Below, piece by piece: positions 4,496-36,936 of a stretch of DNA of 37,376 nt. This DNA is from Nemertoderma westbladi. Lineage: Eukaryota > Animalia > Xenacoelomorpha. How positions within the stretch are numbered: the first letter of the stretch is position 1; the number at the start of each line of letters is the position of its first letter. The stretch is taken from NCBI GenBank assembly GCA_032718475.1, contig JAUCBJ010002467.1, positions 1 to 37,376 on the forward strand, written 5' to 3'. Under the pieces are notes generated by a model. The model was not told the origin of the DNA and ran no database searches. It saw only the letters and a list, made by a program, of their open reading frames with translations. The position numbers were made by a program, and so were the translations under genes.

Positions 4496-5499
4496 GTTAA
4501 CCGTTAAGACAGTTCATCGGATAGCTTCCCTGTAGTAATAAATTTACTGTTGAAAATGAACAAATGGTACAGGTAGGCCTACATGTTATGTTACCTTCAA
4601 CCTTCACAATAAACTTACATCACCGGAATTCCTATCTTATGACGCAATTTTTAACAAATTTATTTCAGACACACCTCACATATTTTTGCTGGAGACGATT
4701 ATGTATAGTTAGTTATAGAATATATTTAGCTGTAAGATGAAATTAATAACATCCATTGTAATTATGGCATATGGTGTATTAAAGGTATTAAGATACAACA
4801 AGGAATTTAAGATTTATGTTGATGTAATGGTATATTATTGAATTATTATTTTTAAAATCAATTTAACTGTACCAAACTTCATTATCGTTACGATATAGCG
4901 CACTTTATAACTTGAAACCGGCGCAGTTCCCATTGGAATAATATTGAGTAAAAACGTTCTGGAACACACCCCTGGAGGATCGAAAATCGTGTTGATGTTT
5001 CATAAAACTCAAGTGGTGTAGAATTTGGTAACTTTTAGGAAAAACCCCAATGATGCTAGTTGTTCATCAGTCGCAATATTGATGACAACAATATTACCTA
5101 CCCGAATCAGTTAAAAACATATACTATATAGGTAGGTATATTTCTATTCAAAGTATCACAGATCTATATAGTACAGTTATAGACAGTGTAGACCTACATC
5201 ATTTATTTCAATTTTCTATATTGCGCTGACTGTTTGAATTGAAATATAGGCTGGACGGGTCACAAAACCATCACTACTTCTGGCGGGATATATCATCCCG
5301 TAAAAAATTCCAATCAATCTTAAAACAGGGACATAAATTCGACAGAAAACATAGTCAAATAGAATATTATTCATAATTCCTCTTCTATCTTCGCTTAAAT
5401 AATATTCAATAATACTATACGAATAATATAATATTCCATTGGTATCCAACACAATCAGTCGTAAAAAACCTCTAACACGTATTTCTTAAAAACGTATAT

Positions 5500-5540
5500 T
5501 TTAGTTTAATGATACCCAAATAATGTTAAACTACTTAATT
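5500..5540 (+). promoter_or_regulatory. Putative snRNA proximal sequence element (PSE) of U4 copy 1
   Basis: TTTAATGATACCCAA(A/T)TAATGTTAAACTACTT at about -63 to -31 is conserved upstream of both U4 copies, and similarity ends just beyond it. Confidence 0.55.
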
Positions 5541-5568
5541 TAAGTACAAGGGTGGAGGTTGTTTAGGT

Positions 5569-5709
5569 ATCTTTGCGCAGAGGCAGTATCGTAGCCGATG
5601 AGGTTTAACCGAGGCGCGATTATTGCTAATTGAAAACTATTCCCAATAACCCGCCCTGGGGAAACTTCGGTGGAACCAGGAGCAATTTGTGTGGGGCCCT
5701 CGGGGTACC
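5569..5709 (+). ncRNA. U4: U4 spliceosomal snRNA
   Basis: ATCTTTGCGCAGAGGCAGTATCGTAGCCGATGAGGTTTAACCGAGGCGCGATTATTGCTAATTGAAAAC matches the metazoan U4 5' half (U6-pairing stems, kink-turn). Sm-like site AATTTGTG at 5684-5691, terminal hairpin, 141 nt. Confidence 0.96.
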
Positions 5710-5814
5710 TGTATAATATAAAACAATGTACCATAACCGTCTAACTCTCTCTACCTGTATAATATACAGAGATTATCGCCTGTCCCAGAAGGTGATATAC
5801 GGTTATAAAACCTG

Positions 5815-8133: not shown

Positions 8134-8847
8134 TTATTTTTCTGAGAATTAGATTCAGCTCAGAATTCTGTGCTTCTGTACGGAAGTTTCAGACTTTGGC
8201 CCAGGAACATCTGATGGCCTTGGTTATAAGAACGTAAATCTATTAACTTGTCATTTGACTTACTTAACTGCACATGCATTATGACTTGTAACACATATTG
8301 ACTGTTCAGCGCACTGTTTTACTTCTGTTTCATATTGTATTAATTGTTGTTTATATTAATGGATGTTATATTTGGAGAATACCGATAAATAATCATAAAC
8401 CCCTCAATCTTATTGATTACTGAGGTAAGAGGAAAAGAGTATACCGGTAGCAACTGCGACTTAAATTATAGTGGTTTTGTGTGAATTAAATGCTATTTCA
8501 TAATCCTTACGTGTGTCAGTTGCAATCCTCCTTATATATGATCAAATTCAGTGAGGGTCGGCAATTTAGTGTGAAGTAGTGTGAAGTCGTGTGAAAGTCA
8601 ATAAAGCATCTCCTAAAGAATGCGCTATTTACGAAACTCTGTGGCCATCTAGTTGTGATTATAGTATAAGTCATAACTCTGTTTTTATACTTAAAGCGCC
8701 ACGTCCTAAAGGAACTGTTAATATTTCCCCGAAAGTAAATATACTGTAGTTGTCAGAGATTATATACAGTAGTAGCGATCAATCGAATAATACAGAGTAG
8801 TCTACACCGCAATACTTCCCAGGGAACCCGAATCCAGTCTCCCCTGT

Positions 8848-10755
8848 AGAAGGTCGAGCGAACTCGGACAGTGTAAATGAGATCCTTCCAGGCTTTCCGA
8901 TTCTCCAACTACTACTAGGTCGAGCGAACTCGGACAATGGAAATGAGATCCTTCCAGGCTTCCCGATTCTACTACTACTAGAAGGTCGAGCGAACTCGGA
9001 CAGTGTAAATGAGATCCTTCCAGGCTTCCCGATTCTCCAACTACTACTAGGTCGAGCGAGCTCGGACAGTGGAAATGAGATCCTTCCAGGCTTCCCGATT
9101 CTCCAACTACTACTAGAGCGAGCGAGCTCGGACAGTGGAAATGAGATCCTTCCCGGCTTCCCGATTCTCCAACTACTACTAGGTCGAGCGAACTCGGACA
9201 ATGGAAATGAGATCCTTCCAGGCTTCCCGATTCTCCATAGTTGTCGCAATTTCATTTCTCCAAGTTCAGTATCCCTTTCAAGTTGATCTATATATGTTAT
9301 GGCCGGTCGTCCACGACTACGCTTTCCATGAGTTGGTTGCCAGAAAAGTAGATCTGGTATGACCTCGTCTTTACTTCGCCAGCAGTGCCCACTGAATCTT
9401 AATCTGCGTTCACGGAGGGTGGTTGATACAGGCGGTGTTGTACCATAAAGCTCGGCGTTTGTCATGTGCTGTCTCCAGCTGATGTTTAGGGCTGCCCTCA
9501 GTAGTCTTGTGTAGCAACCATCAATTCGTTGTTCAAATGATTTAGTCAGTGTCCAGGTCTCACCCCCGTATAAAAATACACTTTCCACTGTGGCACGAAA
9601 GAACTTAGTCTTCAGAGCCTGGAGAGATCTGATTTCCAGATGAAGCCTTTGCTTTCCTAACTTGTCCTTTTTGCTACTCTATATCCCTTGGAAGTCATCG
9701 ACCTTCCTCAGTTGATTATTATCAATGGTTGTCAAGTTTCCATCAACATTAAAGGTCATGAATTCGGTCTTGGTAGCATTTATATGCAATACAACCTCCT
9801 TAGCAGCCCTCTCCACTTTATTTAGTAGAAGCTGTGCATCTGCTAGCGTATTAGAGAGCGGCGATGTCACCCGCAAATCGATCGGTGTCCGAAGACACAT
9901 CGGTGTCTGTGACTGTAGTTGCCGGACATCTACTACAGTAGCCTACTTCTGCGTTCTTGAAGTGTGAATCCCAGATCTTCACCATTTGTGGCCGTCCTCA
10001 TTGCGTAATCCAGCACAATTACAAATAGTAATGATGCTAATGTGTCACCTTGCAGTACGCCAGCCAGGATTGAGAAAAACTCAGTTTCACCATCTAGTGA
10101 GAGTACCTGTGCTTCTGTGTCACAATATAACAATCCAATTACGCAACAATTACTTCTGGTATTCCATAAGCTCTTAGGATTTCAAGCATTTTACCTCTAT
10201 GGATGGAGTCGAATGCCTTCTTGAAGTCCACAAACGTCATGACTGCGGGGAGATTCTTTGACTTAATTCCTTCATTCAGTCTCCGTAGTGCAAGTATCTG
10301 AGCTATTGTTGATCTACTTGGTCGAAATCCGTTTTGGCTCTTACACAGAAGTTTCTCTATGTGAGGCCTAATCCTATATAGAATCATTTTATTGTATATT
10401 TTGGCAGCTACCACAAGCAGACAGACCCCACGATAGTTTGTTGGTATACCGAGGTCTCCTTTCTTGGGGAGAGGCTTTAGTTGACCTTTAGTCCAAATTG
10501 GTGGTGGCTTTCCCCTTTTTAACATCCGGTTGCAAACATTCAATAATGGTCTGTTTAGCACTCCTGTTTTCCATACCTCCGCTGGGATTTCATCTAATCC
10601 ACTCGCTTTATTATTGGACATGCTTTTAATGCTTCTTTGGAGTTCGGCAGGTGTGAAGTCCCCTGTTTCTATAGGTAGTGTCTTGTCATATATTTTCCTT
10701 GTAGGGCTGACCTCGATGTTTGGTGGCTGCCCAAGCAAGCTGCTGAAGTGAATTG
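8848..10755 (-). mobile_element. 5'-truncated, disabled RTE-clade non-LTR retrotransposon (reverse transcriptase)
   Basis: ORF pieces 10139-10738 (NYRGVCLL, QNGFRPSRST, FVDFKKAFDS), 9933-10133 (GVLQGDTLAS), 9679-9900 (LHINATKTE) and 8779-9588 (LYGGETW, RRLRFSGH, RGRP). Frameshifts and stops are present, the YADD region is disrupted, and the tail is (TAG)n. Confidence 0.93.
8852..9237 (-). repeat. 66-bp tandem repeat x6 of the RTE 3' terminus including its (TAG)n tail
   Basis: Units start at 8852, 8918, 8984, 9050, 9116 and 9182, separated by CTACTACTA. Confidence 0.93.
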
Positions 10756-11737
10756 TCTATGATATCTAGAACACAACACCTAAAACGGAAATGTTAATAC
10801 TTACCCCTTAAGTGAACATAATTGTTAGGAATTATACAATGAGAATCAATCGAATGATACATAACCAGCCCAATTCTAGTAAGCCGATATATTTCAGGCT
10901 CCCATTAAAGGTGGGTCATACGCTGCGCTAACTGATTTATATCTGATGTTAAAACGTTTGGCAAACTTAAGCAAAATTTCTGTGATAATAAAATTTGACG
11001 GTGAAAATTATCTAACTCAAAAGCGCGAACAGGTGTAAATGCAGAAGTGTAGGCGTGTGTAAGTGTCGGCGTAGCTTTTACCCCCATTTTTTATTTGGTT
11101 TTATAAATATTTTTAAACTAGTTAAAAAATTTAGAAATTGTCATTTTTATTTATAAATTTCACTAAAATATTTAGAAGAAAAAACGCTGCTCTGATATAC
11201 CGGTACAGTATTTACATATTTTAATTAAAAAATAAACTATTACCAGTATTGATTGTGAAACCTTTTCCATAAATACGTGGAAGGACGGCACATCCATTCC
11301 TAAGTTTCCATAATTACTGTACTTATCATATATAACCAAGTTCAATTCAACACAACACAGTAGTAAAGTAGTAAACTCGAACTCCATAGCATTAATCCAA
11401 ATAGGGAAATATACTGTAGATATCTATCCATAATCACTATTCATAACAAACGGACTTTGGTCAACTTCCCAGACAGGCTGTAAGCCGTACAGCAGTAGCA
11501 GTCTGCCACTCGCCACTACTGCAAGCAGCACTGCCAGTACGCAGTACAGCAGTAACCCAGCTCTGTACACTACAGCACAGCACTACATCGCATTTAAATT
11601 ACAATACTGCAATACAGCAATAGGCCTACTTCAGTACTTATTGTACCGGTACCACACTTCCTGTACTTCAGTAGGCCCTACTTCAGTACTTACTACTGCA
11701 GCAATAGGACGACTAAGCACAAACAAACCCTGAAAAT

Positions 11738-12259
11738 ATGGCAAGTAAGGCGGCAGCTTCGAAACGGGCTGGAGGTAAGAAACGCGTACAACGCGCGACT
11801 AGTAATGTATTCGCTATGTTCGATCAGAATCAAATACAAGAGTTTAAAGAGGCCTTCAACATGATAGACCAAAACCATGACGGGTTTATTAATAAGGATG
11901 ATCTAAGAGATATGTTGTTCTCTTTGGGCAAGGAGCCCGGAGATTCTTATCTGGATGACATGATTAACGAAGCTCCTGGGCCTATCAACTTCACAATGTT
12001 CCTAACCCTATTCGGGGAGCGCCTGCAGGGCACAGACCCTGAAGAAGTCATCAGAAATGCATTCTCTAACTTCGATGACGATCTTACAGGAATTATTCCG
12101 GAGGAGAACTTGCGTGAGTTGCTGATGACTATGGGCGATCGGTTTACGGAAGACGAAGTCGACGAGATGTTCCGAGACGCCCCGATAGATAAACAAGGAG
12201 GATTTAATTACCCGGAATTCACAAAGATCCTTAAACACGGAGTTAAAGAAAAGGAATAG
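11738..12259 (+). CDS. MYL12: Myosin II regulatory light chain (non-muscle/smooth type; MYL12/MYL9/sqh family), intronless CDS, 173 aa
   Basis: [17 protein letters not shown] phosphorylation motif, EF-hand [39 protein letters not shown]-terminal [11 protein letters not shown] intact from ATG to TAG. Confidence 0.97.
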
Positions 12260-16334: not shown

Positions 16335-17570
16335 ATGGGTTGTAAAGGCTTTTGCGGAATTAGCTAGTCATTTTCCCCGCAAAGTACTCTGTAGGTGTTT
16401 TAGCGGACATAAAAAGCCGTTTCCTTACTGTACCGGTGTTTTAGTGGACATAAAAAGCCATTTCTTCTGTATGTGTACTTTAGCGGACATAACTAGCGAT
16501 TTTATGTCGCAATACGCCAAAATACTCTTGATACAGTGTAAGTTCAGATGACGACATCTATCAGCTGATATGTCCACGTGTAACTTTTTCTTTGTTCTTT
16601 GTTCGGTCGACCAATCAGAGCGATTTTCATTTTATTTGTACAGAAACCTCCGGGAAATCGCGCAATGCATTATGGTTTATGTTTACCTTTTTTCCTAAGC
16701 CTAGAACATCGGCTATGGAATTATTCTGTGTTTCAGACTTTAGCCAAACATTAGAACGGCTTTGATTATAGAAACGTATAACTGTTATCATATTGTCACA
16801 AACTGCATACAGCCCATATCATACCATACATACCTTTCACCGCATTATTTTACTGCTATTTACTGTCGGTTATTAATTGTATCAGTTGATGGAATATTGT
16901 TATATTTGGAGAATATCGATAAATAATCATAAAACCCCCAATCTTCTTGATATACTGAAGGTGAGAGACCGGTTACATATAGCAATTGCGACTTACATTA
17001 TAGTGGTTTTGGAGTGAATCTAATGCTATTTCATAGGCCCTACATGTATCGGTTGCTGTTCTCTTTATATGTGACTAAAATTAGTGAAGGTCGGCAGATC
17101 GGTGTGCAGCATTGTGCGGTAGTGTGCATGAATGTGATAGATAACAAAGCATCTCCTAAAGAATGCGCTTTATACGTGAATCAATAGCCATCCTGTTGTG
17201 TTTAGTGTAAGTCATAACTCTGTTTACATACTTAGAGCGCCACGTCCTAAAGGAACTGTTGATATTTCCCGAAAGTGAATAATATTTGTCAGAGATTATA
17301 TATTAACGATCAATCGAATAATACAGTAGGCCTACACCGCAATAAGGTCAGAGCTTCCGAATCCAGTCTCCCGGGTAAATCCAGCGGGTGAATGGTCGCG
17401 CATAGGCTGGCTTCGGCTAATGTAGTGCATCAAATACTTGTCATAGGCTAAAGTCGATTTATAACCTAGAAGACACCTAAATTTGGCAGGTTAAACTGCT
17501 AAAGGTCTAAAAGCGCGAACATGGGTCTTATGTCAAAAGTCGTTTTCAGATTTTGTCTGAGTCCGTATGT
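16335..17570. mobile_element. Unclassified non-coding interspersed element, copy 2 (without the nested insertions of copy 1)
   Basis: Collinear with the copy 1 segments. The left end has reiterated TTTAGCGGACATAA motifs and the right end has TATGTCAAAAG motifs, possibly degenerate TIRs. Confidence 0.7.
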
Positions 17571-17757
17571 CAAAAGTATAGGAAGGGATCTTGGGGTCTT
17601 AGCCTCGAATGATAAGTTTATTTTACCGAAAATAACTTATCTTTTATTGGCGCAATTGTAGGACTAATCCTATCACATGCTTTTTTTTTAACCGGGTAGT
17701 GTACAAATTTAGGAATCGCGTAATTTTTCTTGAAATTAATATCTCATATCTCTCCAA

Positions 17758-17800
17758 ACCACGTACGCGTTTCGACCTTACTGGGTCTCATCAGCGTGGT
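17758..17800 (-). ncRNA. Minimal type I hammerhead ribozyme (copy 1)
   Basis: ACCACG-CTGATGA-GACC-CAGTAA-GGTC-GAAA-C-GC-GTA-CGTGGT on the minus strand. The conserved core is complete, stems I and II are perfect, and stem III is the palindrome ACGCGT. Confidence 0.9.
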
Positions 17801-17860
17801 GTCGGATTCGAACCTGGGACCTCGAGGTGGAAGCCGAGACTACAACCACTAGGCCACAGG
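17798..17860 (-). promoter_or_regulatory. tRNA-like Pol III internal promoter (A and B boxes) fused to the hammerhead
   Basis: A box TGGCCTAGTGG (17846-17856), anticodon-arm-like CTCGGCTTCCACCTCGAG, B box GGTTCGAATCC (17804-17814). The acceptor stem does not form, so this is not a functional tRNA. Confidence 0.75.
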
Positions 17861-18014
17861 TTCTTGAGATATGGAGTATTAATTTCAAAGCCAGCTGCCA
17901 TTTTATTAGCCCCTGATTTTTCGATTATTGGTAGTAACAATGTGTTGGCAAGCTGTATTTATCGAGGTGTTTGTTATTATAAATTTACTTCGAGGTTCTA
18001 GGTTCGAATCCGAC

Positions 18015-18057
18015 ACCACGCTGATGAGACCCAGTAAGGTCGAAACGCGTACGTGGT
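18015..18057 (+). ncRNA. Minimal type I hammerhead ribozyme (copy 2)
   Basis: ACCACG 18015-20, CTGATGA 18021-27, stem II GACC/GGTC, GAAA 18042-45, GTA cleavage triplet 18049-51, CGTGGT 18052-57. Preceded by a B box at 18001-18011. Confidence 0.9.
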
Positions 18058-18484
18058 TTGGAGAGATATGAGATATTAATTTCAAGAAAAATTACGCGAT
18101 TCCTAAATTTGTACACTACCCGGTTAAAAAGTACGCATGTGATGGGATTAGTCCTACAATTGCGCCAATAAAAGATAAGTTATTTTCGGTAAAATAAACT
18201 TATCATTCGAGGCTAAGACCCCTAGATCCCTTCCTATAATAAATGTATAATAACAAACACCTCGAAAAATACAGCTTGCCAACACATTGTTACTATCAAT
18301 ATTTTCAAAAGTATAGCTTCCACTGACTGGTAAGTCATAAATCTTTATTAAATAATATAAGATGCATCTCACATTCAATGGAACACTTGAACATTTAATG
18401 GCTTTGCTGCTATCCAAAGTAACCAATCACAGACCTCTTGGCAGAAAGAACGGTGACAAGTTGCCTCATTCCATGAGTCAGGCG

Positions 18485-18608
18485 GCTATTGTACATTGTT
18501 TTATATTATACAGGTAGAGAGAGTTAGACGGTTATTGTACATTGTTTTATATTATACAGCGAGAGAGAGTGAGTTAGGCTGTTATTGTACATTGTTATAT
18601 ATTATACA
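18485..18608 (-). repeat. Three ~47-50-bp tandem copies of the U4 3' flank
   Basis: ATTGTACATTGTT(T/A)TATATTATACAG at about 18487, 18534 and 18584. A related duplication lies at 5707/5753 after U4 copy 1. Confidence 0.85.
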
Positions 18609-18749
18609 GGTACCCCGAGGGCCCCACACAAATTGCTCCTGGTTCCACCGAAGTTTCCCCAGGGCGGGTTATTGGGAATAGTTTTCAATTAGCAATAATC
18701 GCGCCTCGGTTAAACCTCATCGGCTACGATACTGCCTCTGCGCAAAGAT
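18609..18749 (-). ncRNA. U4: U4 spliceosomal snRNA (identical to copy 1)
   Basis: Exact reverse complement of 5569-5709, with a conserved upstream PSE-like region at about 18780-18815. Confidence 0.96.
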
Positions 18750-19076
18750 ACCTAAACAACCTCCACCCATCTACTTCAATCAAGTAGTTTAACATTAATT
18801 GGGTATCATTAAAATAAAATAAATATATGGATACATATTTTACTTATCCGGTACTAATTGTAAAAACATAAGACAACATTTATATATTATAATTTTCATA
18901 AACAATTAATTTAAAATTATTGATAAATAAAAACGTTTTAAATGTTAATAATGTTTGAATAACTTTCTATAATTTATTACCTGATCGTCTCTTAGCGATA
19001 TTTAAAAGAAGGATTGCCTCCCCAAAGTACATTACTTTACACGCCACCTAGCGTCTAATATCGTGAACTAACTAAC

Positions 19077-19248: not shown

Positions 19249-19434
19249 CTAAACATAACAAAACGTCGGTCAAACAATAAACTTGATTACTATCCCATTA
19301 CGAGTTTTACATCGGAAACGGTTTCCAACACTTAATCTACACAAACTCTACATATATTCATATCCTTTCCCCAAACTCCCATTGCCGATATTGAAAACTT
19401 GCTCGTCTATAGGTACCAACAAAGTCTATAGGCA

Positions 19435-21805
19435 CCAAACTTATCGCTTGAGGGCTCGATCAATGTACTTGAGCACAGTGCTTAAACCAAACTTACCGCT
19501 TGAGTGCTCGATCAATGTACTTGAGCACAGTGCTTAAACCATACTTACCGCTTGAGTGCTCGATCAATGTACTGGAGCACAGTGCTTAAACCAAACTTAC
19601 CGCTTGAGTGCTCGATCAATGTACTGGAGCACAGTGCTTAAACCAAACTTACCGCTTGAGTGCTCGATCAATGTACTGGAGCACAGTGCTTAAACCAAAC
19701 TTACAGTTTGAGTGCTCGATCAATGTACTGGAGCACAGTGCTTAAACCAAACTTACCGCTTGAGTGCTCGATCAATGTACTGGAGCACAGTGCTTAAACC
19801 AAACTTACAGTTTGAGTGCTCGATCAATGTACTTGAGCACAGTGCTTAAACCAAACTTACCGCTTGAGTGCTCGATCAATGTACTTGAGCACAGTGCTTA
19901 AACCATACTTACCGCTTGAGTGCTCGATCAATGTACTGGAGCACAGTGCTTAAACCAAACTTACCGCTTGAGTGCTCGATCAATGTACTGGAGCACAGTG
20001 CTTAAACCAAACTTACCGCTTGAGTGCTCGATCAATGTACTGGAGCACAGTGCTTAAACCAAACTTACCGCTTGAGTGCTCGATCAATGTACTGGAGCAC
20101 AGTGCTTAAACCAAACGTACAGTTTGAGTGCTCGATCAATGTACTGGAGCACAGTGCTTAAACCAAACTTACCGCTTGAGTGCTCGATCAATGTACTTGA
20201 GCACAGTGCTTAAACCAAACTTACCGCTTGAGTGCTCGATCAATGTACTGGAGCACAGTGCTTAAACCAAACTTACCGCTTGAGTGCTCGATCAATGTAC
20301 TGGAGCACAGTGCTTAAACCAAACTTACCGTTTGAGTGCTCGATCAATGTACTGGAGCACAGTGCTTAAACCAAACTTACCGCTTGAGTGCTCGATCAAT
20401 GTACTGGAGCACAGTGCTTAAACCAAACTTACCGCTTGAGTGCTCGATCAATGTACTGGAGCACAGTGCTTAAACCAAACTTACCGCTTGAGTGCTCGAT
20501 CAATGTACTGGAGCACAGTGCTTAAACCAAACTTACCGCTTGAGTGCTCGATCAATGTACTGGAGCACAGTGCTTAAACCAAACTTACCGCTTGAGTGCT
20601 CGATCAATGTACTGGAGCACAGTGCTTAAACCAAACTTACCGCTTGAGTGCTCGATCAATGTACTGGAGCACAGTGCTTAAACCAAACTTACCGCTTGAG
20701 TGCTCGATCAATGTACTGGAGCACAGTGCTTAAACCAAACTTACCGCTTGAGTGCTCGATCAATGTACTGGAGCACAGTGCTTAAACCAAACTTACCGCT
20801 TGAGTGCTCGATCAATGTACTGGAGCACAGTGCTTAAACCAAACTTACCGCTTGAGTGCTCGATCAATGTACTGGAGCACAGTGCTTAAACCAAACTTAC
20901 CGCTTGAGTGCTCGATCAATGTACTTGAGCACAGTGCTTAAACCAAACTTACCGCTTGAGTGCTCGATCAATGTACTGGAGCACAGTGCTTAAACCAAAC
21001 TTACCGCTTGAGTGCTCGATCAATGTACTGGAGCACAGTGCTTAAACCAAACTTACCGCTTGAGTGCTCGATCAATGTACTGGAGCACAGTGCTTAAACC
21101 AAACTTACCGCTTGAGTGCTCGATCAATGTACTGGAGCACAGTGCTTAAACCAAACTTACCGCTTGAGTGCTCGATCAATGTACTGGAGCACAGTGCTTA
21201 AACCAAACTTACCGCTTGAGTGCTCGATCAATGTACTGGAGCACAGTGCTTAAACCAAACTTACCGCTTGAGTGCTCGATCAATGTACTGGAGCACAGTG
21301 CTTAAACCAAACTTACCGCTTGAGTGCTCGATCAATGTACTGGAGCACAGTGCTTAAACCAAACTTACCGCTTGAGTGCTCGATCAATGTACTGGAGCAC
21401 AGTGCTTAAACCAAACTTACCGCTTGAGTGCTCGATCAATGTACTGGAGCACAGTGCTTAAACCAAACTTACCGCTTGAGTGCTCGATCAATGTACTGGA
21501 GCACAGTGCTTAAACCAAACTTACAGTTTGAGTGCTCGATCAATGTACTGGAGCACAGTGCTTAAACCAAACTTACAGCTTGAGTGCTCGATCAATGTAC
21601 TGGAGCACAGTGCTTAAACCAAACTTACCGCTTGAGTGCTCGATCAATGTACTGGAGCACAGTGCTTAAACCAAACTTACCGCTTGAGTGCTCGATCAAT
21701 GTACTGGAGCACAGTGCTTAAACCAAACTTACCGCTTGAGTGCTCGATCAATGTACTGGAGCACAGTGCTTAAACCAAACTTACCGCTTGAGTGCTCGAG
21801 GGCTG
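19435..21805 (-). repeat. 52-bp tandem array x45 built from the IQCH exon 3' end plus splice donor
   Basis: Minus-strand unit GTAAGTTTGGTTTAAGCACTGTGCTCCAGTACATTGATCGAGCACTCAAGCG. CCAAAC from 19435 to 21775 spans exactly 45 x 52. Confidence 0.97.
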
Positions 21806-22016
21806 TACTTGAGCACAGTACTCAAGCACATCTTATGATCAGGAAAACGTTTGATCGCATCAGGTACTATAACGGTAAACCGAGAGTCCACGGGACTCTG
21901 GTCATCAGCGTTGCCTGTAGCAACAGCGTTACGTAGGCCCAGAAGACGACTGTAATATTGTTCCATATCCTCTGTGATTGGCACCGGTGAGATGTAAACT
22001 ACATCAACATTGGGAT
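21785..22016 (-). CDS. IQCH: IQCH exon (6th visible): DPNVDVVYISP...HKMCLSTVLKYSPRALKR
   Basis: TTTTAG| acceptor and |GTAAGT donor, phase 1 in and phase 2 out. Resembles IQCH NVIYI..HMCLAT.LMYSPKAIKR. Confidence 0.9.
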
Positions 22017-22040
22017 CTAAAACAGGAAGTAATATTGTAA

Positions 22041-25000
22041 AATTCAATCTGCTGCACCTGTGACCCAGGGTTATTCTGATTGGTTCAGTGTATAATTCAG
22101 TCTGGTGCACCAGTGACCCAGGGTTATTCTGATTGATTCAGTGTATAATTCAGTCTTATGCACCTGTGACCCAGGGTTATTCTGATTGATTCAGTGTATA
22201 ATTCAGTCTTATGCACCTGTGACCCAGGGTTATTCTGATTGGTTCAGTGTATAATTCAGTCTTATGCACCTGTGACCCAGGGTTATTCTGATTGGTTCAG
22301 TGTATAATTCAGTCTGGTGCACCAGTGACCCAGGGTTATTCTGATTGGTTCAGTGTATAATTCAGTCTTATGCACCTGTGACCCAGGGTTATTCTGATTG
22401 GTTCAGTGTATAATTCAGTCTTATGCACCTGTGACCCAGTGTTATTCTGATTGGTTCAGTGTATAATTCAGTCTTATGCACCTGTGACCCAGGGTTATTC
22501 TGATTGGTTCAGTGTATAATTCAGTCTTATGCACCTGTGACCCAGTGTTATTCTGATTGGTTCAGTGTATAATTCAGTCTTATGCACCTGTGACCCAGGG
22601 TTATTCTGATTGGTTCAGTGTATAATTCAGTCTTATGCACCTGTGACCCAGGGTTATTCTGATTGGTTCAGTGTATAATTCAGTCTTATGCACCTGTGAC
22701 CCAGGGTTATTCTGATTGGTTCAGTGTATAATTCAGTCTTATGCACCTGTGACCCAGTGTTATTCTGATTGGTTCAGTGTATAATTCAGTCTTATGCACC
22801 TGTGACCCAGGGTTATTCTGATTGGTTCAGTGTATAATTCAGTCTTATGCACCTGTGACCCAGGGTTATTCTGATTGGTTCAGTGTATAATTCAGTCTTA
22901 TGCACCTGTGACCCAGTGTTATTCTGATTGGTTCAGTGTATAATTCAGTCTTATGCACCTGTGACCCAGGGTTATTCTGATTGGTTCAGTGTATAATTCA
23001 GTCTTATGCACCTGTGACCCAGGGTTATTCTGATTGGTTCAGTGTATAATTCAGTCTTATGCACCTGTGACCCAGGGTTATTCTGATTGGTTCAGTGTAT
23101 AATTCAGTCTTATGCACCTGTGACCCAGGGTTATTCTGATTGGTTCAGTGTATAATTCAGTCTTATGCACCTGTGACCCAGGGTTATTCTGATTGGTTCA
23201 GTGTATAATTCAGTCTTATGCACCTGTGACCCAGGGTTATTCTGATTGGTTCAGTGTATAATTCAGTCTGGTGCACCTGTGACCCAGGGTTATTCTGATT
23301 GGTTCAGTGTATAATTCAGTCTTATGCACCTGTGACCCAGGGTTATTCTGATTGGTTCAGTGTATAATTCAGTCTTATGCACCTGTGACCCAGGGTTATT
23401 CTGATTGGTTCAGTGTATAATTCAGTCTTATGCACCTGTGACCCAGGGTTATTCTGATTGGTTCAGTGTATAATTCAGTCTTATGCACCTGTGACCCAGG
23501 GTTATTCTGATTGGTTCAGTGTATAATTCAGTCTTATGCACCTGTGACCCAGGGTTATTCTGATTGGTTCAGTGTATAATTCAGTCTTATGCACCTGTGA
23601 CCCAGGGTTATTCTGATTGGTTCAGTGTATAATTCAGTCTGGTGCACCTGTGACCCAGGGTTATTCTGATTGGTTCAGTGTATAATTCAGTCTTATGCAC
23701 CTGTGACCCAGGGTTATTCTGATTGGTTCAGTGTATAATTCAGTCTGGTGCACCTGTGACCCAGGGTTATTCTGATTGGTTCAGTGTATAATTCAGTCTT
23801 ATGCACCTGTGACCCAGGGTTATTCTGATTGGTTCAGTGTATAATTCAGTCTTATGCACCTGTGACCCAGGGTTATTCTGATTGGTTCAGTGTATAATTC
23901 AGTCTTATGCACCTGTGACCCAGGGTTATTCTGATTGGTTCAGTGTATAATTCAGTCTTATGCACCTGTGACCCAGGGTTATTCTGATTGGTTCAGTGTA
24001 TAATTCAGTCTGGTGCACCTGTGACCCAGGGTTATTCTGATTGATTCAGTGTATAATTCAGTCTTATGCACCTGTGACCCAGGGTTATTCTGATTGGTTC
24101 AGTGTATAATTCAGTCTTATGCACCTGTGACCCAGGGTTATTCTGATTGGTTCAGTGTATAATTCAGTCTGGTGCACCTGTGACCCAGGGTTATTCTGAT
24201 TGGTTCAGTGTATAATTCAGTCTTATGCACCTGTGACCCAGGGTTATTCTGATTGGTTCAGTGTATAATTCAGTCTTATGCACCTGTGACCCAGGGTTAT
24301 TCTGATTGGTTCAGTGTATAATTCAGTCTTATGCACCTGTGACCCAGGGTTATTCTGATTGGTTCAGTGTATAATTCAGTCTTATGCACCTGTGACCCAG
24401 GGTTATTCTGATTGGTTCAGTGTATAATTCAGTCTGGTGCACCTGTGACCCAGGGTTATTCTGATTGATTCAGTGTATAATTCAGTCTTATGCACCTGTG
24501 ACCCAGGGTTATTCTGATTGGTTCAGTGTATAATTCAGTCTGGTGCACCTGTGACCCAGGGTTATTCTGATTGGTTCAGTGTATAATTCAGTCTTATGCA
24601 CCTGTGACCCAGGGTTATTCTGATTGGTTCAGTGTATAATTCAGTCTTATGCACCTGTGACCCAGGGTTATTCTGATTGATTCAGTGTATAATTCAGTCT
24701 TATGCACCTGTGACCCAGGGTTATTCTGATTGGTTCAGTGTATAATTCAGTCTTATGCACCTGTGACCCAGGGTTATTCTGATTGGTTCAGTGTATAATT
24801 CAGTCTGGTGCACCTGTGACCCAGGGTTATTCTGATTGGTTCAGTGTATAATTCAGTCTGGTGCACCTGTGACCCAGGGTTATTCTGATTGATTCAGTGT
24901 ATAATTCAGTCTTATGCACCTGTGACCCAGGGTTATTCTGATTGGTTCAGTGTATAATTCAGTCTTATGCACCTGTGACCCAGGGTTATTCTGATTGGTT

Positions 25001-28000
25001 CAGTGTATAATTCAGTCTTATGCACCTGTGACCCAGGGTTATTCTGATTGGTTCAGTGTATAATTCAGTCTGGTGCACCTGTGACCCAGGGTTATTCTGA
25101 TTGGTTCAGTGTATAATTCAGTCTGGTGCACCTGTGACCCAGGGTTATTCTGATTGGTTCAGTGTATAATTCAGTCTGGTGCACCTGTGACCCAGGGTTA
25201 TTCTGATTGGTTCAGTGTATAATTCAGTCTTATGCACCTGTGACCCAGGGTTATTCTGATTGGTTCAGTGTATAATTCAGTCTTATGCACCTGTGACCCA
25301 GGGTTATTCTGATTGGTTCAGTGTATAATTCAGTCTGGTGCACCTGTGACCCAGGGTTATTCTGATTGGTTCAGTGTATAATTCAGTCTTATGCACCTGT
25401 GACCCAGGGTTATTCTGATTGGTTCAGTGTATAATTCAGTCTTATGCACCTGTGACCCAGGGTTATTCTGATTGGTTCAGTGTATAATTCAGTCTGGTGC
25501 ACCTGTGACCCAGGGTTATTCTGATTGGTTCAGTGTATAATTCAGTCTGGTGCACCTGTGACCCAGGGTTATTCTGATTGGTTCAGTGTATAATTCAGTC
25601 TTATGCACCTGTGACCCAGGGTTATTCTGATTGGTTCAGTGTATAATTCAGTCTGGTGCACCTGTGACCCAGGGTTATTCTGATTGATTCAGTGTATAAT
25701 TCAGTCTTATGCACCTGTGACCCAGGGTTATTCTGATTGGTTCAGTGTATAATTCAGTCTTATGCACCTGTGACCCAGGGTTATTCTGATTGGTTCAGTG
25801 TATAATTCAGTCTGGTGCACCTGTGACCCAGGGTTATTCTGATTGATTCAGTGTATAATTCAGTCTTATGCACCTGTGACCCAGGGTTATTCTGATTGGT
25901 TCAGTGTATAATTCAGTCTTATGCACCTGTGACCCAGGGTTATTCTGATTGGTTCAGTGTATAATTCAGTCTTATGCACCTGTGACCCAGGGTTATTCTG
26001 ATTGGTTCAGTGTATAATTCAGTCTTATGCACCTGTGACCCAGGGTTATTCTGATTGGTTCAGTGTATAATTCAGTCTTATGCACCTGTGACCCAGGGTT
26101 ATTCTGATTGGTTCAGTGTATAATTCAGTCTTATGCACCTGTGACCCAGGGTTATTCTGATTGGTTCAGTGTATAATTCAGTCTTATGCACCTGTGACCC
26201 AGGGTTATTCTGATTGGTTCAGTGTATAATTCAGTCTTATGCACCTGTGACCCAGGGTTATTCTGATTGGTTCAGTGTATAATTCAGTCTTATGCACCTG
26301 TGACCCAGGGTTATTCTGATTGGTTCAGTGTATAATTCAGTCTTATGCACCTGTGACCCAGGGTTATTCTGATTGGTTCAGTGTATAATTCAGTCTTATG
26401 CACCTGTGACCCAGGGTTATTCTGATTGGTTCAGTGTATAATTCAGTCTTATGCACCTGTGACCCAGGGTTATTCTGATTGGTTCAGTGTATAATTCAGT
26501 CTTATGCACCTGTGACCCAGGGTTATTCTGATTGATTCAGTGTATAATTCAGTCTTATGCACCTGTGACCCAGGGTTATTCTGATTGGTTCAGTGTATAA
26601 TTCAGTCTTATGCACCTGTGACCCAGGGTTATTCTGATTGGTTCAGTGTATAATTCAGTCTTATGCACCTGTGACCCAGGGTTATTCTGATTGGTTCAGT
26701 GTATAATTCAGTCTTATGCACCTGTGACCCAGGGTTATTCTGATTGGTTCAGTGTATAATTCAGTCTGGTGCACCTGTGACCCAGGGTTATTCTGATTGA
26801 TTCAGTGTATAATTCAGTCTTATGCACCTGTGACCCAGGGTTATTCTGATTGGTTCAGTGTATAATTCAGTCTTATGCACCTGTGACCCAGGGTTATTCT
26901 GATTGATTCAGTGTATAATTCAGTCTTATGCACCTGTGACCCAGGGTTATTCTGATTGGTTCAGTGTATAATTCAGTCTTATGCACCTGTGACCCAGGGT
27001 TATTCTGATTGGTTCAGTGTATAATTCAGTCTTATGCACCTGTGACCCAGGGTTATTCTGATTGGTTCAGTGTATAATTCAGTCTTATGCACCTGTGACC
27101 CAGGGTTATTCTGATTGGTTCAGTGTATAATTCAGTCTTATGCACCTGTGACCCAGGGTTATTCTGATTGGTTCAGTGTATAATTCAGTCTTATGCACCT
27201 GTGACCCAGGGTTATTCTGATTGGTTCAGTGTATAATTCAGTCTTATGCACCTGTGACCCAGGGTTATTCTGATTGGTTCAGTGTATAATTCAGTCTTAT
27301 GCACCTGTGACCCAGGGTTATTCTGATTGGTTCAGTGTATAATTCAGTCTTATGCACCTGTGACCCAGGGTTATTCTGATTGGTTCAGTGTATAATTCAG
27401 TCTTATGCACCTGTGACCCAGGGTTATTCTGATTGGTTCAGTGTATAATTCAGTCTTATGCACCTGTGACCCAGGGTTATTCTGATTGGTTCAGTGTATA
27501 ATTCAGTCTTATGCACCTGTGACCCAGGGTTATTCTGATTGGTTCAGTGTATAATTCAGTCTGGTGCACCTGTGACCCAGGGTTATTCTGATTGGTTCAG
27601 TGTATAATTCAGTCTGGTGCACCTGTGACCCAGGGTTATTCTGATTGATTCAGTGTATAATTCAGTCTTATGCACCTGTGACCCAGGGTTATTCTGATTG
27701 GTTCAGTGTATAATTCAGTCTTATGCACCTGTGACCCAGGGTTATTCTGATTGGTTCAGTGTATAATTCAGTCTTATGCACCTGTGACCCAGGGTTATTC
27801 TGATTGGTTCAGTGTATAATTCAGTCTTATGCACCTGTGACCCAGGGTTATTCTGATTGGTTCAGTGTATAATTCAGTCTGGTGCACCTGTGACCCAGGG
27901 TTATTCTGATTGGTTCAGTGTATAATTCAGTCTTATGCACCTGTGACCCAGGGTTATTCTGATTGGTTCAGTGTATAATTCAGTCTGGTGCACCTGTGAC

Positions 28001-31000
28001 CCAGGGTTATTCTGATTGGTTCAGTGTATAATTCAGTCTGGTGCACCTGTGACCCAGGGTTATTCTGATTGGTTCAGTGTATAATTCAGTCTTATGCACC
28101 TGTGACCCAGGGTTATTCTGATTGGTTCAGTGTATAATTCAGTCTTATGCACCTGTGACCCAGGGTTATTCTGATTGGTTCAGTGTATAATTCAGTCTTA
28201 TGCACCTGTGACCCAGGGTTATTCTGATTGGTTCAGTGTATAATTCAGTCTTATGCACCTGTGACCCAGGGTTATTCTGATTGGTTCAGTGTATAATTCA
28301 GTCTTATGCACCTGTGACCCAGGGTTATTCTGATTGGTTCAGTGTATAATTCAGTCTTATGCACCTGTGACCCAGGGTTATTCTGATTGGTTCAGTGTAT
28401 AATTCAGTCTTATGCACCTGTGACCCAGGGTTATTCTGATTGATTCAGTGTATAATTCAGTCTTATGCACCTGTGACCCAGGGTTATTCTGATTGGTTCA
28501 GTGTATAATTCAGTCTTATGCACCTGTGACCCAGGGTTATTCTGATTGGTTCAGTGTATAATTCAGTCTTATGCACCTGTGACCCAGGGTTATTCTGATT
28601 GGTTCAGTGTATAATTCAGTCTTATGCACCTGTGACCCAGGGTTATTCTGATTGGTTCAGTGTATAATTCAGTCTTATGCACCTGTGACCCAGGGTTATT
28701 CTGATTGGTTCAGTGTATAATTCAGTCTTATGCACCTGTGACCCAGGGTTATTCTGATTGGTTCAGTGTATAATTCAGTCTTATGCACCTGTGACCCAGG
28801 GTTATTCTGATTGGTTCAGTGTATAATTCAGTCTTATGCACCTGTGACCCAGGGTTATTCTGATTGGTTCAGTGTATAATTCAGTCTGGTGCACCTGTGA
28901 CCCAGGGTTATTCTGATTGGTTCAGTGTATAATTCAGTCTTATGCACCTGTGACCCAGGGTTATTCTGATTGGTTCAGTGTATAATTCAGTCTTATGCAC
29001 CTGTGACCCAGGGTTATTCTGATTGGTTCAGTGTATAATTCAGTCTTATGCACCTGTGACCCAGGGTTATTCAGATTGGTTCAGTGTATAATTCAGTCTG
29101 GTGCACCAGTGACCCAGGGTTATTCTGATTGGTTCAGTGTATAATTCAGTCTGGTGCACCTGTGACCCAGGGTTATTCAGATTGGTTCAGTGTATAATTC
29201 AGTCTGGTGCACCTGTGACCCAGGGTTATTCTGATTGGTTCAGTGTATAATTCAGTCTTATGCACCTGTGACCCAGGGTTATTCAGATTGGTTCAGTGTA
29301 TAATTCAGTCTGGTGCACCAGTGACCCAGGGTTATTCTGATTGGTTCAGTGTATAATTCAGTCTGGTGCACCTGTGACCCAGGGTTATTCTGATTGGTTC
29401 AGTGTATAATTCAGTCTTATGCACCTGTGACCCAGTGTTATTCTGATTGGTTCAGTGTATAATTCAGTCTTATGCACCTGTGACCCAGGGTTATTCTGAT
29501 TGGTTCAGTGTATAATTCAGTCTTATGCACCTGTGACCCAGGGTTATTCTGATTGGTTCAGTGTATAATTCAGTCTTATGCACCTGTGACCCAGGGTTAT
29601 TCTGATTGGTTCAGTGTATAATTCAGTCTTATGCACCTGTGACCCAGGGTTATTCTGATTGGTTCAGTGTATAATTCAGTCTTATGCACCTGTGACCCAG
29701 GGTTATTCTGATTGGTTCAGTGTATAATTCAGTCTTATGCACCTGTGACCCAGGGTTATTCTGATTGATTCAGTGTATAATTCAGTCTTATGCACCTGTG
29801 ACCCAGGGTTATTCTGATTGGTTCAGTGTATAATTCAGTCTTATGCACCTGTGACCCAGGGTTATTCTGATTGGTTCAGTGTATAATTCAGTCTTATGCA
29901 CCTGTGACCCAGGGTTATTCTGATTGGTTCAGTGTATAATTCAGTCTTATGCACCTGTGACCCAGGGTTATTTTGATTGGTTCAGTATATAATTCAGTCT
30001 TATGCACCTGTGACCCAGGGTTATTCTGATTGGTTCAGTGTATAATTCAGTCTTATGCACCTGTGACCCAGGGTTATTCTGATTGATTCAGTGTATAATT
30101 CAGTCTTATGCACCTGTGACCCAGGGTTATTCTGATTGGTTCAGTGTATAATTCAGTCTTATGAACCTGTGACCCAGGGTTATTTTGATTGGTTCAGTGT
30201 ATAATTCAGTCTGGTGCACCTGTGACCCAGGGTTATTCTGATTGATTCAGTGTATAATTCAGTCTTATGCACCTGTGACCCAGGGTTATTCTGATTGGTT
30301 CAGTGTATAATTCAGTCTTATGCACCTGTGACCCAGGGTTATTCTGATTGGTTCAGTGTATAATTCAGTCTTATGCACCTGTGACCCAGGGTTATTCTGA
30401 TTGGTTCAGTGTATAATTCAGTCTTATGCACCTGTGACCCAGGGTTATTCTGATTGGTTCAGTGTATAATTCAGTCTTATGCACCTGTGACCCAGGGTTA
30501 TTCTGATTGGTTCAGTGTATAATTCAGTCTTATGAACCTGTGACCCAGGGTTATTTTGATTGGTTCAGTGTATAATTCAGTCTGGTGCACCTGTGACCCA
30601 GGGTTATTCTGATTGGTTCAGTGTATAATTCAGTCTTATGCACCTGTGACCCAGGATTATTCTGATTGGTTCAGTGTATAATTCAGTCTTATGCACCTGT
30701 GACCCAGGGTTATTCTGATTGGTTCAGTGTATAATTCAGTCTTATGCACCTGTGACCCAGGGTTATTCTGATTGGTTCAGTGTATAATTCAGTCTTATGA
30801 ACCTGTGACCCAGGGTTATTTTGATTGGTTCAGTGTATAATTCAGTCTGGTGCACCTGTGACCCAGGGTTATTCTGATTGGTTCAGTGTATAATTCAGTC
30901 TTATGCACCTGTGACCCAGGATTATTCTGATTGGTTCAGTGTATAATTCAGTCTTATGCACCTGTGACCCAGGGTTATTCTGATTGGTTCAGTGTATAAT

Positions 31001-31015
31001 TCAGTCTGCTGCACC
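22041..31015. repeat. 53-bp satellite, ~169 copies (~9 kb), intronic
   Basis: Unit GCACCTGTGACCCAGGGTTATTCTGATTGGTTCAGTGTATAATTCAGTCTTAT with a few recurrent variants (TTAT/TGGT, TTGG/TTGA). No spacers. Confidence 0.99.
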
Positions 31016-31185
31016 TTACCGTAAATGTCACAAACACTCACCGTAAATGTCACAAACACTCACCGTAAATGTCACAAACACTCACCGTAAATGTCACAAA
31101 CACTCACCGTAAATGTCACAAACACTCACCGTAAATGTCACAAACACTCACCGTAAATGTCACAAACACTCACCGTAAATGTCAC
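31015..31185 (-). repeat. 22-bp tandem array x8 built from the IQCH exon 3' end plus splice donor
   Basis: CCGTAAATGTCAC at 31019, 31041 and onward to 31173. Minus-strand unit TTTGTGACATTTACG|GTGAGTG. Confidence 0.96.
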
Positions 31186-31324
31186 ACAGACGTCCCATTT
31201 GTCGGTTCTGGAGGGCTGGCAGATTGGTCAGACTTTGTCGAATATGCTGAGAATATCCCCGGGATGGGATGTGAATCACTGTCCTTCTCGAATTCTTGAT
31301 TCTATTCCATTGAGATTTTAGTAA
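31174..31324 (-). CDS. IQCH: IQCH exon (5th visible): LLKSQWNRIKNSRRTVIHIPSRGYSQ...QMGRLCDIY
   Basis: TTTGCAG| acceptor and |GTGAGT donor. Motif RRTxIHIPSxGYSQ..GRLCDI is characteristic of IQCH. Not in the supplied ORF track. Confidence 0.9.
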
Positions 31325-31689: not shown

Positions 31690-32280
31690 CTAACTGATCT
31701 AGACTTTGCTGACGACTTAGGGGACTGTCAGAATCACTAGAGGGAGACAAAAGGCTCCTCTGTTTCTATTAATGTAAAATTAAATTAATTAAACTCATTG
31801 GAGCAGGTTGCTTCTAGTGTTGGTCTTTTTGTAAACTCCAACAAGACTAAAATCATGATAGTGAACCTAGACAGCCCTCTATAAATGTCTGATCGTAAGG
31901 GCATAAGCTCTAGGGACGGCTTGCTTGAGCACATGGATGACTTCTGCTACTTGGGATTTGGATCATGGATCCGAAAGTCAGGTGAGGACCTTCGAATACA
32001 TAAGGGAAAGGCACGGGCAGCCTTGAATAGGCTTTCCAGGATTTGGAAGTCACCGAGAATTAATCGGAAACTTAAGGTCCGGTTATTTAGAGCAGCAGTA
32101 GTTCCAGTACTCCTCTATGGGAGTCCATGCTGGGCTCTAACTGCTGGGGACACCAAATCTCTGGATGGCACATTCACAAGAATGCTACGCCGGGTTCATT
32201 GTGTCAAGTACAATGCACACATCTCCAACCAGACACTATATAACATTGGATGTGTTTCATTGGTTCCCCAAGCTTGACAC
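31690..32280 (+). mobile_element. Degenerate RTE-clade LINE fragment (intronic)
   Basis: DLDFADDL near 31696, VNSNKTK, DDFCYLG, LFRAAVVPVLLYG..W, DGTFTRMLR. Confidence 0.85.
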
Positions 32281-35399: not shown

Positions 35400-36305
35400 C
35401 CATGACCTGTAATCATAAAAGTAAAATGGAATAGTGCTTCTTCGGAGCAGTTTAGAATTACCAATGGAGTTAGACAAGGATCGGTGGCTTCACCAATCCT
35501 GTTTTGTGTTATTGTTAACAAGATGATAATCAAGTTGCGTCAATCTGGCGTTGGTTGTCACATTGGTTCAAGGTATTTCGGGATTGTTGTCTATGCAGAC
35601 GACATTCTGCTTCTTTGTCCATCCATTCCGACGGGTCTTCAGTATATGGTTAACCTTTGTTCTGATTTGCCAGAAAAAAACAGAATGAAATTTAGTACCA
35701 ACGTCGATCCTACAAAGAGCAAAACAACCTGTGTTCCATTTGCTGCTAAATGGTCCCCTCCGAGTTTCTAGATCGTGCTCAATGGTGACAAACTTCCATG
35801 GGTAAAAGAAATGAACCATCTCGGCAACATGTTCCACTACTCGAACAAGTTTGATAGAGATCTCTGTCTTAAACGGGGAAGTTTTATCGGGAAGATGAAT
35901 TGTCTCCGCCAAGAATTATTTTTTGCACACCCAGCTACTCAGTCAGAATTGCATAGAGTTTATACAACTAGTTTCTATGGAAACGGATTCTGGGACATCT
36001 TTTTCGGATGCTTGTGTGCGGCTCGTAACTGCTTGGAACAAGAATTTGAGAACTACCTGGAATCTCCCATATAATACACACAGGTGCATCGTTGAACATC
36101 TGAATCCCTTCCAGCATCCTTTTGTCATGCTGTGTTCGAGATTTGTAGGGTTTGCAAAACGACTGTTATTGTCGATTATGAATAAGCCATCGTTATTCTT
36201 CCTTGCGAATCTATGTCTATTCGATTGTAGAATTGTTTCTGGTAGGAACCTATACAATATTGCAGCTAAGGTCAACGTAAACGTGAAGGATCTTAATTTT
36301 TTTTT
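35400..36305 (+). mobile_element. Degenerate non-LTR retrotransposon RT fragment
   Basis: NGVRQGSVASPILF, GVGCHIG, VYADDILLL, KSKT, HLG and YG..FW motifs spread across frameshifted ORFs. Confidence 0.88.
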
Positions 36306-36936
36306 AAACTACACCCCTCTTCGGGGTAATAAAACTTTTATTTCTCAATAAAATTTAAATAAAACCGGTCCAAACTAGAAATACTGTATATACATATGAA
36401 TGATAATAATATGCTAGAGAACAATGTGAGTTATGGTTTATGTATTTGTATTTATGGTACTTTTGTGGTTAGTGGCCCAATGAGGACAACGATGGACATG
36501 ATTTGCATTTGATTGCATGGTATCGATCTTGTGAGCTTTTGTGGCAGTATTTGCAGCAGCATTCAGGAGACAGTTCGTGGAATATAGTTCGTGGAAGGAT
36601 CTTAATACGAACATGTTTAAGAGTGGTTTTGTAATCCTAGCGGATCAGATATAGTTAGGGTTGTAAGAGAATTAGTTGAGTGTCGCTATAACCTGTGTAT
36701 CACCGCGCTTCACAAATGAGGAGCTGGACTATATTATATTAAAGTTTGTTTGTACGTCATAATTCCCTTAACTTAAATTATTATATTGTGCTATTTTTAT
36801 GTATATATTTTTTTATTCTTCTTCCTTTGGTACATTATATTATATTTACTACTACTGTACGTAAGACAATGTGTATTTTTATTTTCTATATTTCCTTTCC
36901 GTATCTGTGTGCTACATTCGTTTGATCGTATGCACG

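Follow-up and report, generated by a model that had tools for sequence, protein, structure and literature searches.

A hammerhead-bearing, retrozyme-like insertion with head-to-head arms in Nemertoderma westbladi, probably mobilised by a Penelope-type enzyme

The window analysed here is a stretch of 37,376 nt of Nemertoderma westbladi DNA (contig JAUCBJ010002467.1 of assembly GCA_032718475.1). It holds an intronless reading frame for a myosin regulatory light chain (11738-12259, plus strand), whose best matches in ordinary databases are 73-78% identical and spread across many phyla; judging from these matches, the host lineage seems to be poorly sampled. Two U4 snRNA copies (5497-5766 and 18475-18821) lie 12.8 kb apart in opposite orientation and, with their flanks, share 256 nt at 96% identity. 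Next to the second copy lies a short 46-bp tandem repeat (18475-18612), an echo of which is found beside the first. Further to the right are two adjacent satellites with 98% matches, one of 52 bp x 46 (19434-21819) and one of 53 bp x 170 (22036-31016), and a satellite of 22 bp x 7.7 with 100% matches (31018-31186). Broken LINE-like reverse transcriptase fragments occur on the minus strand at 8779-9678 and 10139-10756 and on the plus strand at 31885-32277 and 35406-36351; two of them give Pfam RVT_1 matches, and the first is interrupted by a 66-bp tandem array (8851-9237). Finally, a separate, very high-copy repeat (17250-17524), with no Rfam match at the gathering level, ends 52 bp to the left of the insertion described below.

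The insertion consists of two arms, placed head to head, that are cyclic permutations of one unit of 411-412 nt (Table 1). By alignment, the inverted (minus) arm is 411 nt long, one unit less a single base that we call junction A; read from 17987 downwards, it starts with TAAATTTATAAT and finishes with CCCTTCCTATA at 17577. The direct (plus) arm covers unit positions 160-412 followed by 1-62, in the numbering of the inverted arm. It is identical to the doubled inverted arm at 303/315 positions, with a single gap at junction A (18239) and 11 differences in the 314 positions compared, and it runs across the two ends of the inverted arm, joined as CCTATA-A-TAAATG (18233-18245). A preliminary description of this DNA had presented the two copies as circular permutations, with a minus copy (17987 to 17577) of almost exactly one monomer whose ends are joined in a plus copy beginning in the middle of the tRNA-like head. 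All of this is borne out by the alignment and by a 411-nt loop assembled from run X4 (see below), but the right-hand end given for the span, 18304, needs correcting: the direct arm ends at 18301, unit 62.

Table 1. Features of the insertion and its borders (positions in the window; unit numbering follows the inverted arm)
Feature	Position	Strand	Remarks
Target-site duplication, left copy TCAAAAGTATAG	17570..17581	+	last 5 nt TATAG
Inverted arm, unit 1-411	17577..17987	-	without tail at 3′ end; at least 9 changes vs. family majority
Long hairpin	17730..17889	-	arms 17866-17889 and 17730-17752, 87% complementary
Type I hammerhead motif	17758..17800	-	predicted cut after GUA (17764)
Pol III B-box-like motif GGTTCGAATCC	17804..17814	-	unit 174-184
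Pol III A-box-like motif TGGCCTAGTGG	17846..17856	-	unit 132-142; plus arm lacks it
8-bp palindrome TAAATTTA	17980..17987	.	at head-to-head junction
Direct arm	17987..18301	+	5′-truncated; ends at most frequent family 3′ end
B-box-like motif	18001..18011	+	plus arm
Identical hammerhead motif	18015..18057	+	predicted cut after 18051
'Tail'	18239..18301	+	between recurrent end zones 18238-18252 and 18300-18303
Three T	18302..18304	+	between arm end and duplication; unit has one A there
Target-site duplication, right copy	18305..18316	+	first 6 nt TCAAAA

The whole insert is flanked by a 12-bp direct repeat. As a null for this duplication, repeats of at least 12 bp were common to 2/5000 random pairs of 56-nt windows. 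An empty counterpart of the target site was not seen. Both copies of the duplication match the unit where they meet the arms. The TATAG of the left copy is the reverse complement of unit 407-411, while the TCAAAA of the right copy is what the family majority has at unit 64-69 (98-100% of the depth at 17922 in runs X1, X3 and X5, where coverage is low and X4 carries a length variant). We infer that the three T between the direct arm and the duplication are untemplated or slipped. A single base, 17987, is common to the two arms.

Within the shared 314 nt, eight changes are specific to the inverted arm and three to the direct arm. The latter, all C-to-T differences lying no more than 13 nt from the central junction, were assigned indirectly, via the difference counts with the X4 contig, and the inequality between the arms is not significant (Fisher p = 0.22). 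Apart from these three differences and one shared allele, the direct arm is close to the family majority. The shared allele is a C at unit 386, where T makes up 94% (X3) and 91% (X5) of the depth and is also present in X4 and X6 contigs. The presence of this minority C in both arms suggests that they derive from one source lineage.

The unit has 39% GC and is non-coding; a 120-codon open frame that overlaps it, antisense to the inverted arm, gave no Pfam hit. Its tRNA-like head contains two motifs that resemble the consensus Pol III A and B boxes. No tRNA gene was called in the unit by ARAGORN, and the only run of four T in the unit is at 356-359. Directly behind the head, at unit 188-230, is the hammerhead, with a predicted cut after unit 224. 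It is composed of a 6-bp helix I, CUGAUGA, a 4-bp helix II, GAAA and a palindromic ACGCGU helix III, and the core motifs and helices I and II are intact in both arms. A relaxed hammerhead descriptor matched twice in the window, both times in the arms. The Rfam match to HH9 reached 26.6 bits (E 4.2e-4), below the gathering threshold of 52; matches to mir-7386 and Ysr206, far below gathering, were treated as chance. The metagenome, prokaryote-genome and viral collections each contained 0 matches to the exact 26-nt hammerhead pattern.

A hammerhead of this type is the canonical metazoan form, for which a second copy is required for activity (Cervera & de la Pena 2014, PMC4209133). The folding predictions are in keeping with this: the co-fold minimum of two strands is exactly the double hammerhead, at -32.9 kcal/mol, vs. 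2 x -12.3 for the monomer folds, and the best monomer fold (-12.3) masks the hammerhead core, the minimal active monomer having only -6.7. The hammerhead is thus predicted to cut only as a dimer. A long hairpin between unit 99-122 and 236-258 is predicted to enclose both the tRNA-like head and the hammerhead. The unit as a whole folded better than 100/100 shuffles as a linear molecule (z -4.5) and 60/60 as a circle.

Other copies of the family were sought in assembled contigs of five public runs, each arm being compared separately. The family is very abundant in the DNA runs, where the majority of bins in X1 and X3 have a summed depth of 3-7 x 10^5, figures that rest on the best-supported matches listed and measure depth rather than copy number; many individual long contigs carrying the unit have a depth of only about 5-50. 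Head-to-tail joints, in which 17981-17987 leads back to 17577 with the minus arm as reference, were found as DNA in X1 and X3 and, in a variant form, in X5. Li, Clavereau & Pollet (2026, 10.64898/2026.07.22.740005) take as their criterion arrays with at least two complete hammerheads; none was seen directly among the contigs listed. In X3, the depth over the bins of 18209-18276 was 446k, 448k, 462k and 591k, with no dip at the joined ends. This flat depth, together with the head-to-tail DNA joints, shows that the junction highlighted in the preliminary description is internal majority sequence. It was also rejected as a ribozyme ligation site, the predicted cut after unit 224 being about 190 nt away. 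RNA-seq reads across the ligation site, which had been suggested as a check, would have the same sequence as the genome and hence would not discriminate.

In run X4, a 441-nt contig carries 18215-18244 at both ends, making a closed assembly loop of 411 nt that differs from the direct arm at 3 letters. Such an independent closed loop indicates that the cyclic unit is real. It should be noted that the identification of X4 as RNA is a guess and that its organism label differs. The depth of the loop contig is 13.8, and a neighbouring repeat, unrelated to the unit, reaches the same depth or more (summed depth 20-150). We did not count the loop as evidence of circular RNA, because the neighbour is no less deep and tandem DNA would give the same loop. 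No RNA run was listed among those with the unit, which weighs neither way.

The copies in the runs have recurrent 3′ ends. In X3, the best-supported among those listed were at 18301 (22 contigs), 18248 (7) and 18252 (6), together 35/322 partly matching contigs; beyond them the contigs leave the element for unrelated flanks, with an agreement of 0.46-0.48 (0.46 at 18301). In X5 and X6, single ends fall at 18245-18252 and 18300-18303 among the best 18 of 256 matches. The first of the two end zones holds two TATAAT repeats (18235-18240 and 18246-18251), and the tail that the zones bound has 66% A+C, vs. 54% in the remainder of the unit. The end of the inverted arm is equivalent to 18238, in the first TATAAT repeat, 10-14 nt before the cluster of ends at the second; no other copy ended exactly there among the best 18 of 256 matches. 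A candidate recurrent terminus at unit 411 (an X5 match at 17577, 2 contigs) was rejected as the reverse complement of the X5 match at 18252. The preliminary description had named fixed termini in the other copies as an observation that would speak against it; the recurrent 3′ ends form part of that pattern and to this extent count against it.

Several contigs with other junctions were also observed. At loose ends at 18243 and 18300 in X5 and X6, a CAAA(A)GT motif flanks 2-3 other insertions at the element end. One of these flanks resembles the duplication at 17570-17581 in 11/12 positions and adjoins a tail-only piece of 56 nt. A target preference is possible from these flanks, which are anecdotal. 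In X5, a contig of 1,831 nt (depth 401; window 17731-17839) carries the tRNA/hammerhead head and, after it, about 1.7 kb of other sequence, and one of 1,914 nt (depth 1,032; window 18087-18155) has 1,668 nt of other sequence followed by unit 260 onward. These two contigs may come from a longer relative that is possibly autonomous. A further X5 variant (joint 18043-18124, loose end at 17772; depth 1,158) leaves the unit inside GAAA and rejoins it downstream; the idea that it is a sister hammerhead whose helix III is stable was dropped, because the match stops inside GAAA and so does not show an intact core.

Taken together, these data are best explained by a single insertion of a non-autonomous, non-LTR retrozyme mobilised by a Penelope-type element (PLE) from a template that exceeded one cleaved unit in length, a reading to which we give a probability of roughly 70%. 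The mobilising enzyme is likely to have been a Penelope-type reverse transcriptase/endonuclease. PLE insertions are described as leaving a tailed arm, a head-to-head inverted arm without a tail and a short duplication (Craig 2021, PMC8557442; Arkhipova 2013, PMC3846280). Here, too, a head-to-head inverted, 5′-truncated copy lies beside the 5′ end, and only one end bears the tail, whose limits are two recurrent 3′ ends in X3, X5 and X6. A study of the anole PLE reports that its protein nicks and extends both target strands, and that synthesis starts at two internal RNA sites bounding the tail (Frangieh 2024, PMC11167929).

Some observations fit a PLE origin less well. The reverse transcriptase fragments in the window are LINE-like by eye, with only the generic RVT_1 from Pfam; the tail, at about 50-62 nt, is longer than the published 30-40 nt; and the end of the inverted arm falls 10-14 nt short of the commonest ends in the first zone. 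As in L1 twin priming, the two target ends share matches of 5-6 nt with the RNA, whereas the anole PLE began at RNA sites non-homologous to the cut DNA, and TC/AAAA is similar to the L1-type nick motif. No autonomous PLE reading frame (reverse transcriptase plus GIY-YIG) was found in or beside the insert, which is therefore not an autonomous PLE, and no PLE frame with the same ends as the unit was seen.

In the mechanism that we propose, Pol III would transcribe from the A and B boxes through tandem or partial-tandem source copies. The PLE enzyme would then cut the target with a 12-nt stagger and extend both DNA ends on element RNA. The bottom-strand end, TTTTGA-3′, could anneal to the A-run at unit 64-69 and prime the tailed arm, cut short at unit 160, while the top-strand end, TATAG-3′, could prime the inverted arm by annealing to unit 407-411, on the margin of the other start zone. 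The two cDNAs would be joined with a 1-nt overlap, the templates of both arms presumably coming from one source lineage. With a dimer-dependent hammerhead, monomers would be set free from multimeric transcripts, and their ligation could then give circles.

What can be said of the template follows from the extent of the arms. As both arms span the cut site, the template must have exceeded a cleaved monomer in length. In addition, 124 nt of the inverted arm lie upstream of the predicted Pol III start; given the crossed cut, neither a cleaved monomer nor a single primary transcript would suffice without a jump. This leaves a multimer, a terminally redundant RNA or a circle. The preliminary description had concluded from the permutation that the template was circular or tandem; the part of this that stands is a template exceeding the cleaved monomer, while permutation by itself does not imply a circle. 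As between a multimeric or terminally redundant RNA and a circle, we place the odds for this insertion at about 65:35.

The inverted arm might alternatively represent one lap round a ligated monomeric circle, with synthesis stopped at its own primer. This reading shares the PLE assignment and differs in the template only. If the TATAG matching unit 407-411 came from the target, the lap would end at junction A (unit 412) and the arm would be 1-2 nt short; under a uniform null, the chance of an agreement within 2 nt is 1.2%, and that of one within 5 nt is 2.7%. The sequence of both arms continues intact through the predicted cut, and a linear RNA with two hammerheads should, by the folding model, tend to cleave itself. 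Moreover, the retrozymes of coral, mussel and axolotl make abundant circles, and circles have already been proposed in the literature as PLE templates. Set against this, we have a single case, noticed post hoc, and the stop lies in a stretch of 0.85-0.90 AT, among the AT-richest of the unit and a plausible site of fall-off. Since the arms overlap by 252 nt, one circle cannot give both of them with a stop by collision. Uncleaved RNA was the main substrate of the PLE enzyme in vitro, ribozyme activity being unnecessary, and anole RNA-seq had no reads ending at the hammerhead cut site (Frangieh 2024, PMC11167929). In addition, 8/9 Xenopus dimers failed to cleave in vitro, and head-to-tail DNA yields multimers without circles.

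On balance, the single-lap reading is possible but tentative, a circular template for the inverted arm having a chance of about one in three. Its most specific form, in which the arm would be the fossil of exactly one lap round a Pol III-driven circle and both strands of the staggered cut were primed on circles by microhomology, is more doubtful still. If true, it would provide direct evidence for retrozyme circles as templates of Penelope enzymes, and dual priming would explain the Penelope footprint of an inverted copy plus a tail. Arm lengths across the family's copies would then be expected to peak at whole units, counted from the site at which the arm in question was primed.

For the inversion itself, the leading alternative is a fold-back, in which the cDNA would have primed itself at the junction palindrome and 159 nt would later have been lost from the centre of the resulting palindrome. 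The 8-bp palindrome lies exactly at the junction, the minority allele is common to both arms, and junction palindromes have been read as signs of self-priming (Arkhipova 2013, PMC3846280); the 5-nt match on the left would fit the annealing of a fold-back strand equally well. In its simple form, however, this process predicts an inverted arm that is shorter than the direct arm and a subset of it. The observed inverted arm is longer and holds unit 63-159, absent from the direct arm, so that a second event, the central deletion, is needed. There is also only 1 nt of homology for a fold-back to unit 160, and the palindrome depends on one base unlike the family majority. We consider this explanation unlikely.

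A tRNA-derived SINE moved by a LINE with an AP endonuclease, and inverted by twin or dual priming of the L1 type, would account for the tRNA-like head, the priming at an A-run, the nick motif resembling TTTT/A and the presence of LINE-like reverse transcriptase fragments in the window. A duplication with microhomology at the ends is likewise as in L1 twin priming, according to Meyer 2010 (PMC2837659). The same source, however, describes twin priming as giving non-overlapping fragments with an internal deletion, and the arms here overlap by 252 nt. A poly(A) tail is absent, including at 18301, and there are two internal end zones about 50 nt apart, with sequence running head-to-tail through both. 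Such an origin is improbable. Least credible of all is a chimera of assembly or amplification (a fold-back read) or a rearrangement of satellite DNA, for although none of the contigs listed spans either whole arm stretch and the arms were compared separately, neither the 12-bp flanking duplication, nor 11/314 differences between the arms, nor a plus-arm end at the commonest family terminus would be expected from it.

PLE mobilisation of a retrozyme thus remains the preferred reading, and the element can be compared with known systems on that basis. On the features tested, it is an animal non-LTR retrozyme, as the preliminary description had rightly classed it, with self-cleavage predicted and circle formation possible. 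It shares with these elements a low-GC, non-coding unit in the range of 150-450 nt with less than 45-50% GC, a type I hammerhead, high copy number and head-to-tail copies, as well as duplications of more than 4 bp (12 bp here) and a proposed mobilisation by PLEs; monomer copies are common among them (Cervera & de la Pena 2020, PMC7229834; Li, Clavereau & Pollet 2026, 10.64898/2026.07.22.740005). The position of Pol III A and B boxes directly 5′ of the hammerhead is not mentioned for animal retrozymes in the accessible text of the same two papers. Unlike the retrozyme arrays described there, the present locus does not have two hammerheads on one strand.

The likeness to PLEs with an endonuclease extends to the head-to-head inverted, 5′-truncated copy, the tail at one end and the short duplication (PMC8557442; PMC3846280; PMC11167929; PMC4209133), and to an A/C-rich stretch with two recurrent ends that has the hammerhead upstream of it (PMC11167929; PMC4209133). 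As far as the accessible parts of these papers go, the unit differs from PLEs in having no reading frame, a tail of about 50-62 nt rather than 30-40, and a hammerhead with canonical helices (6 and 4 bp) rather than the minimal (min-HHR) shape of PLEs (PMC4209133). It also differs from the anole PLE in the 5-6 nt match between target ends and RNA, vs. non-homologous start sites (PMC11167929). With L1 twin or dual priming, the insertion has in common that both overhangs prime with microhomology, that inverted fragments lie between duplications and that there is little homology at the central junction; the lack of poly(A), the overlapping arms and the recurrent internal start zones set it apart (Meyer 2010, PMC2837659). 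The unit resembles tRNA-derived SINEs in its tRNA-like head with internal A-box-like and B-box-like motifs, but it has neither a fixed 5′ end at the head nor a 3′ tail of poly(A) or simple repeats shared with a LINE, the sequence continuing upstream of the head and through both 3′ end zones. The small-RNA LTR elements Helenus and Ajax were judged not relevant.

The combination of a tRNA head and a hammerhead has a precedent in Sm-alpha and Sj-alpha of schistosomes, which are likewise tRNA-derived, SINE-like repeats with a hammerhead and are present in tens of thousands of copies (PMC2770079). Sm-alpha is tied there to tRNA-Gln-TTG, whereas the loop of the present unit, by eye, is TCC in a degenerate stem; the two are likened by description. 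A PLE-type footprint for Sm-alpha was not found in the literature searched, in which subscription papers were mostly out of view, and we do not claim its absence. The unit described here is short, young and abundant, and its junctions are readable. The arm lengths of its copies could therefore inform two open points, namely whether circles, as proposed in the literature, serve as templates for reverse transcription, and how inverted insertions of the Penelope type originate.
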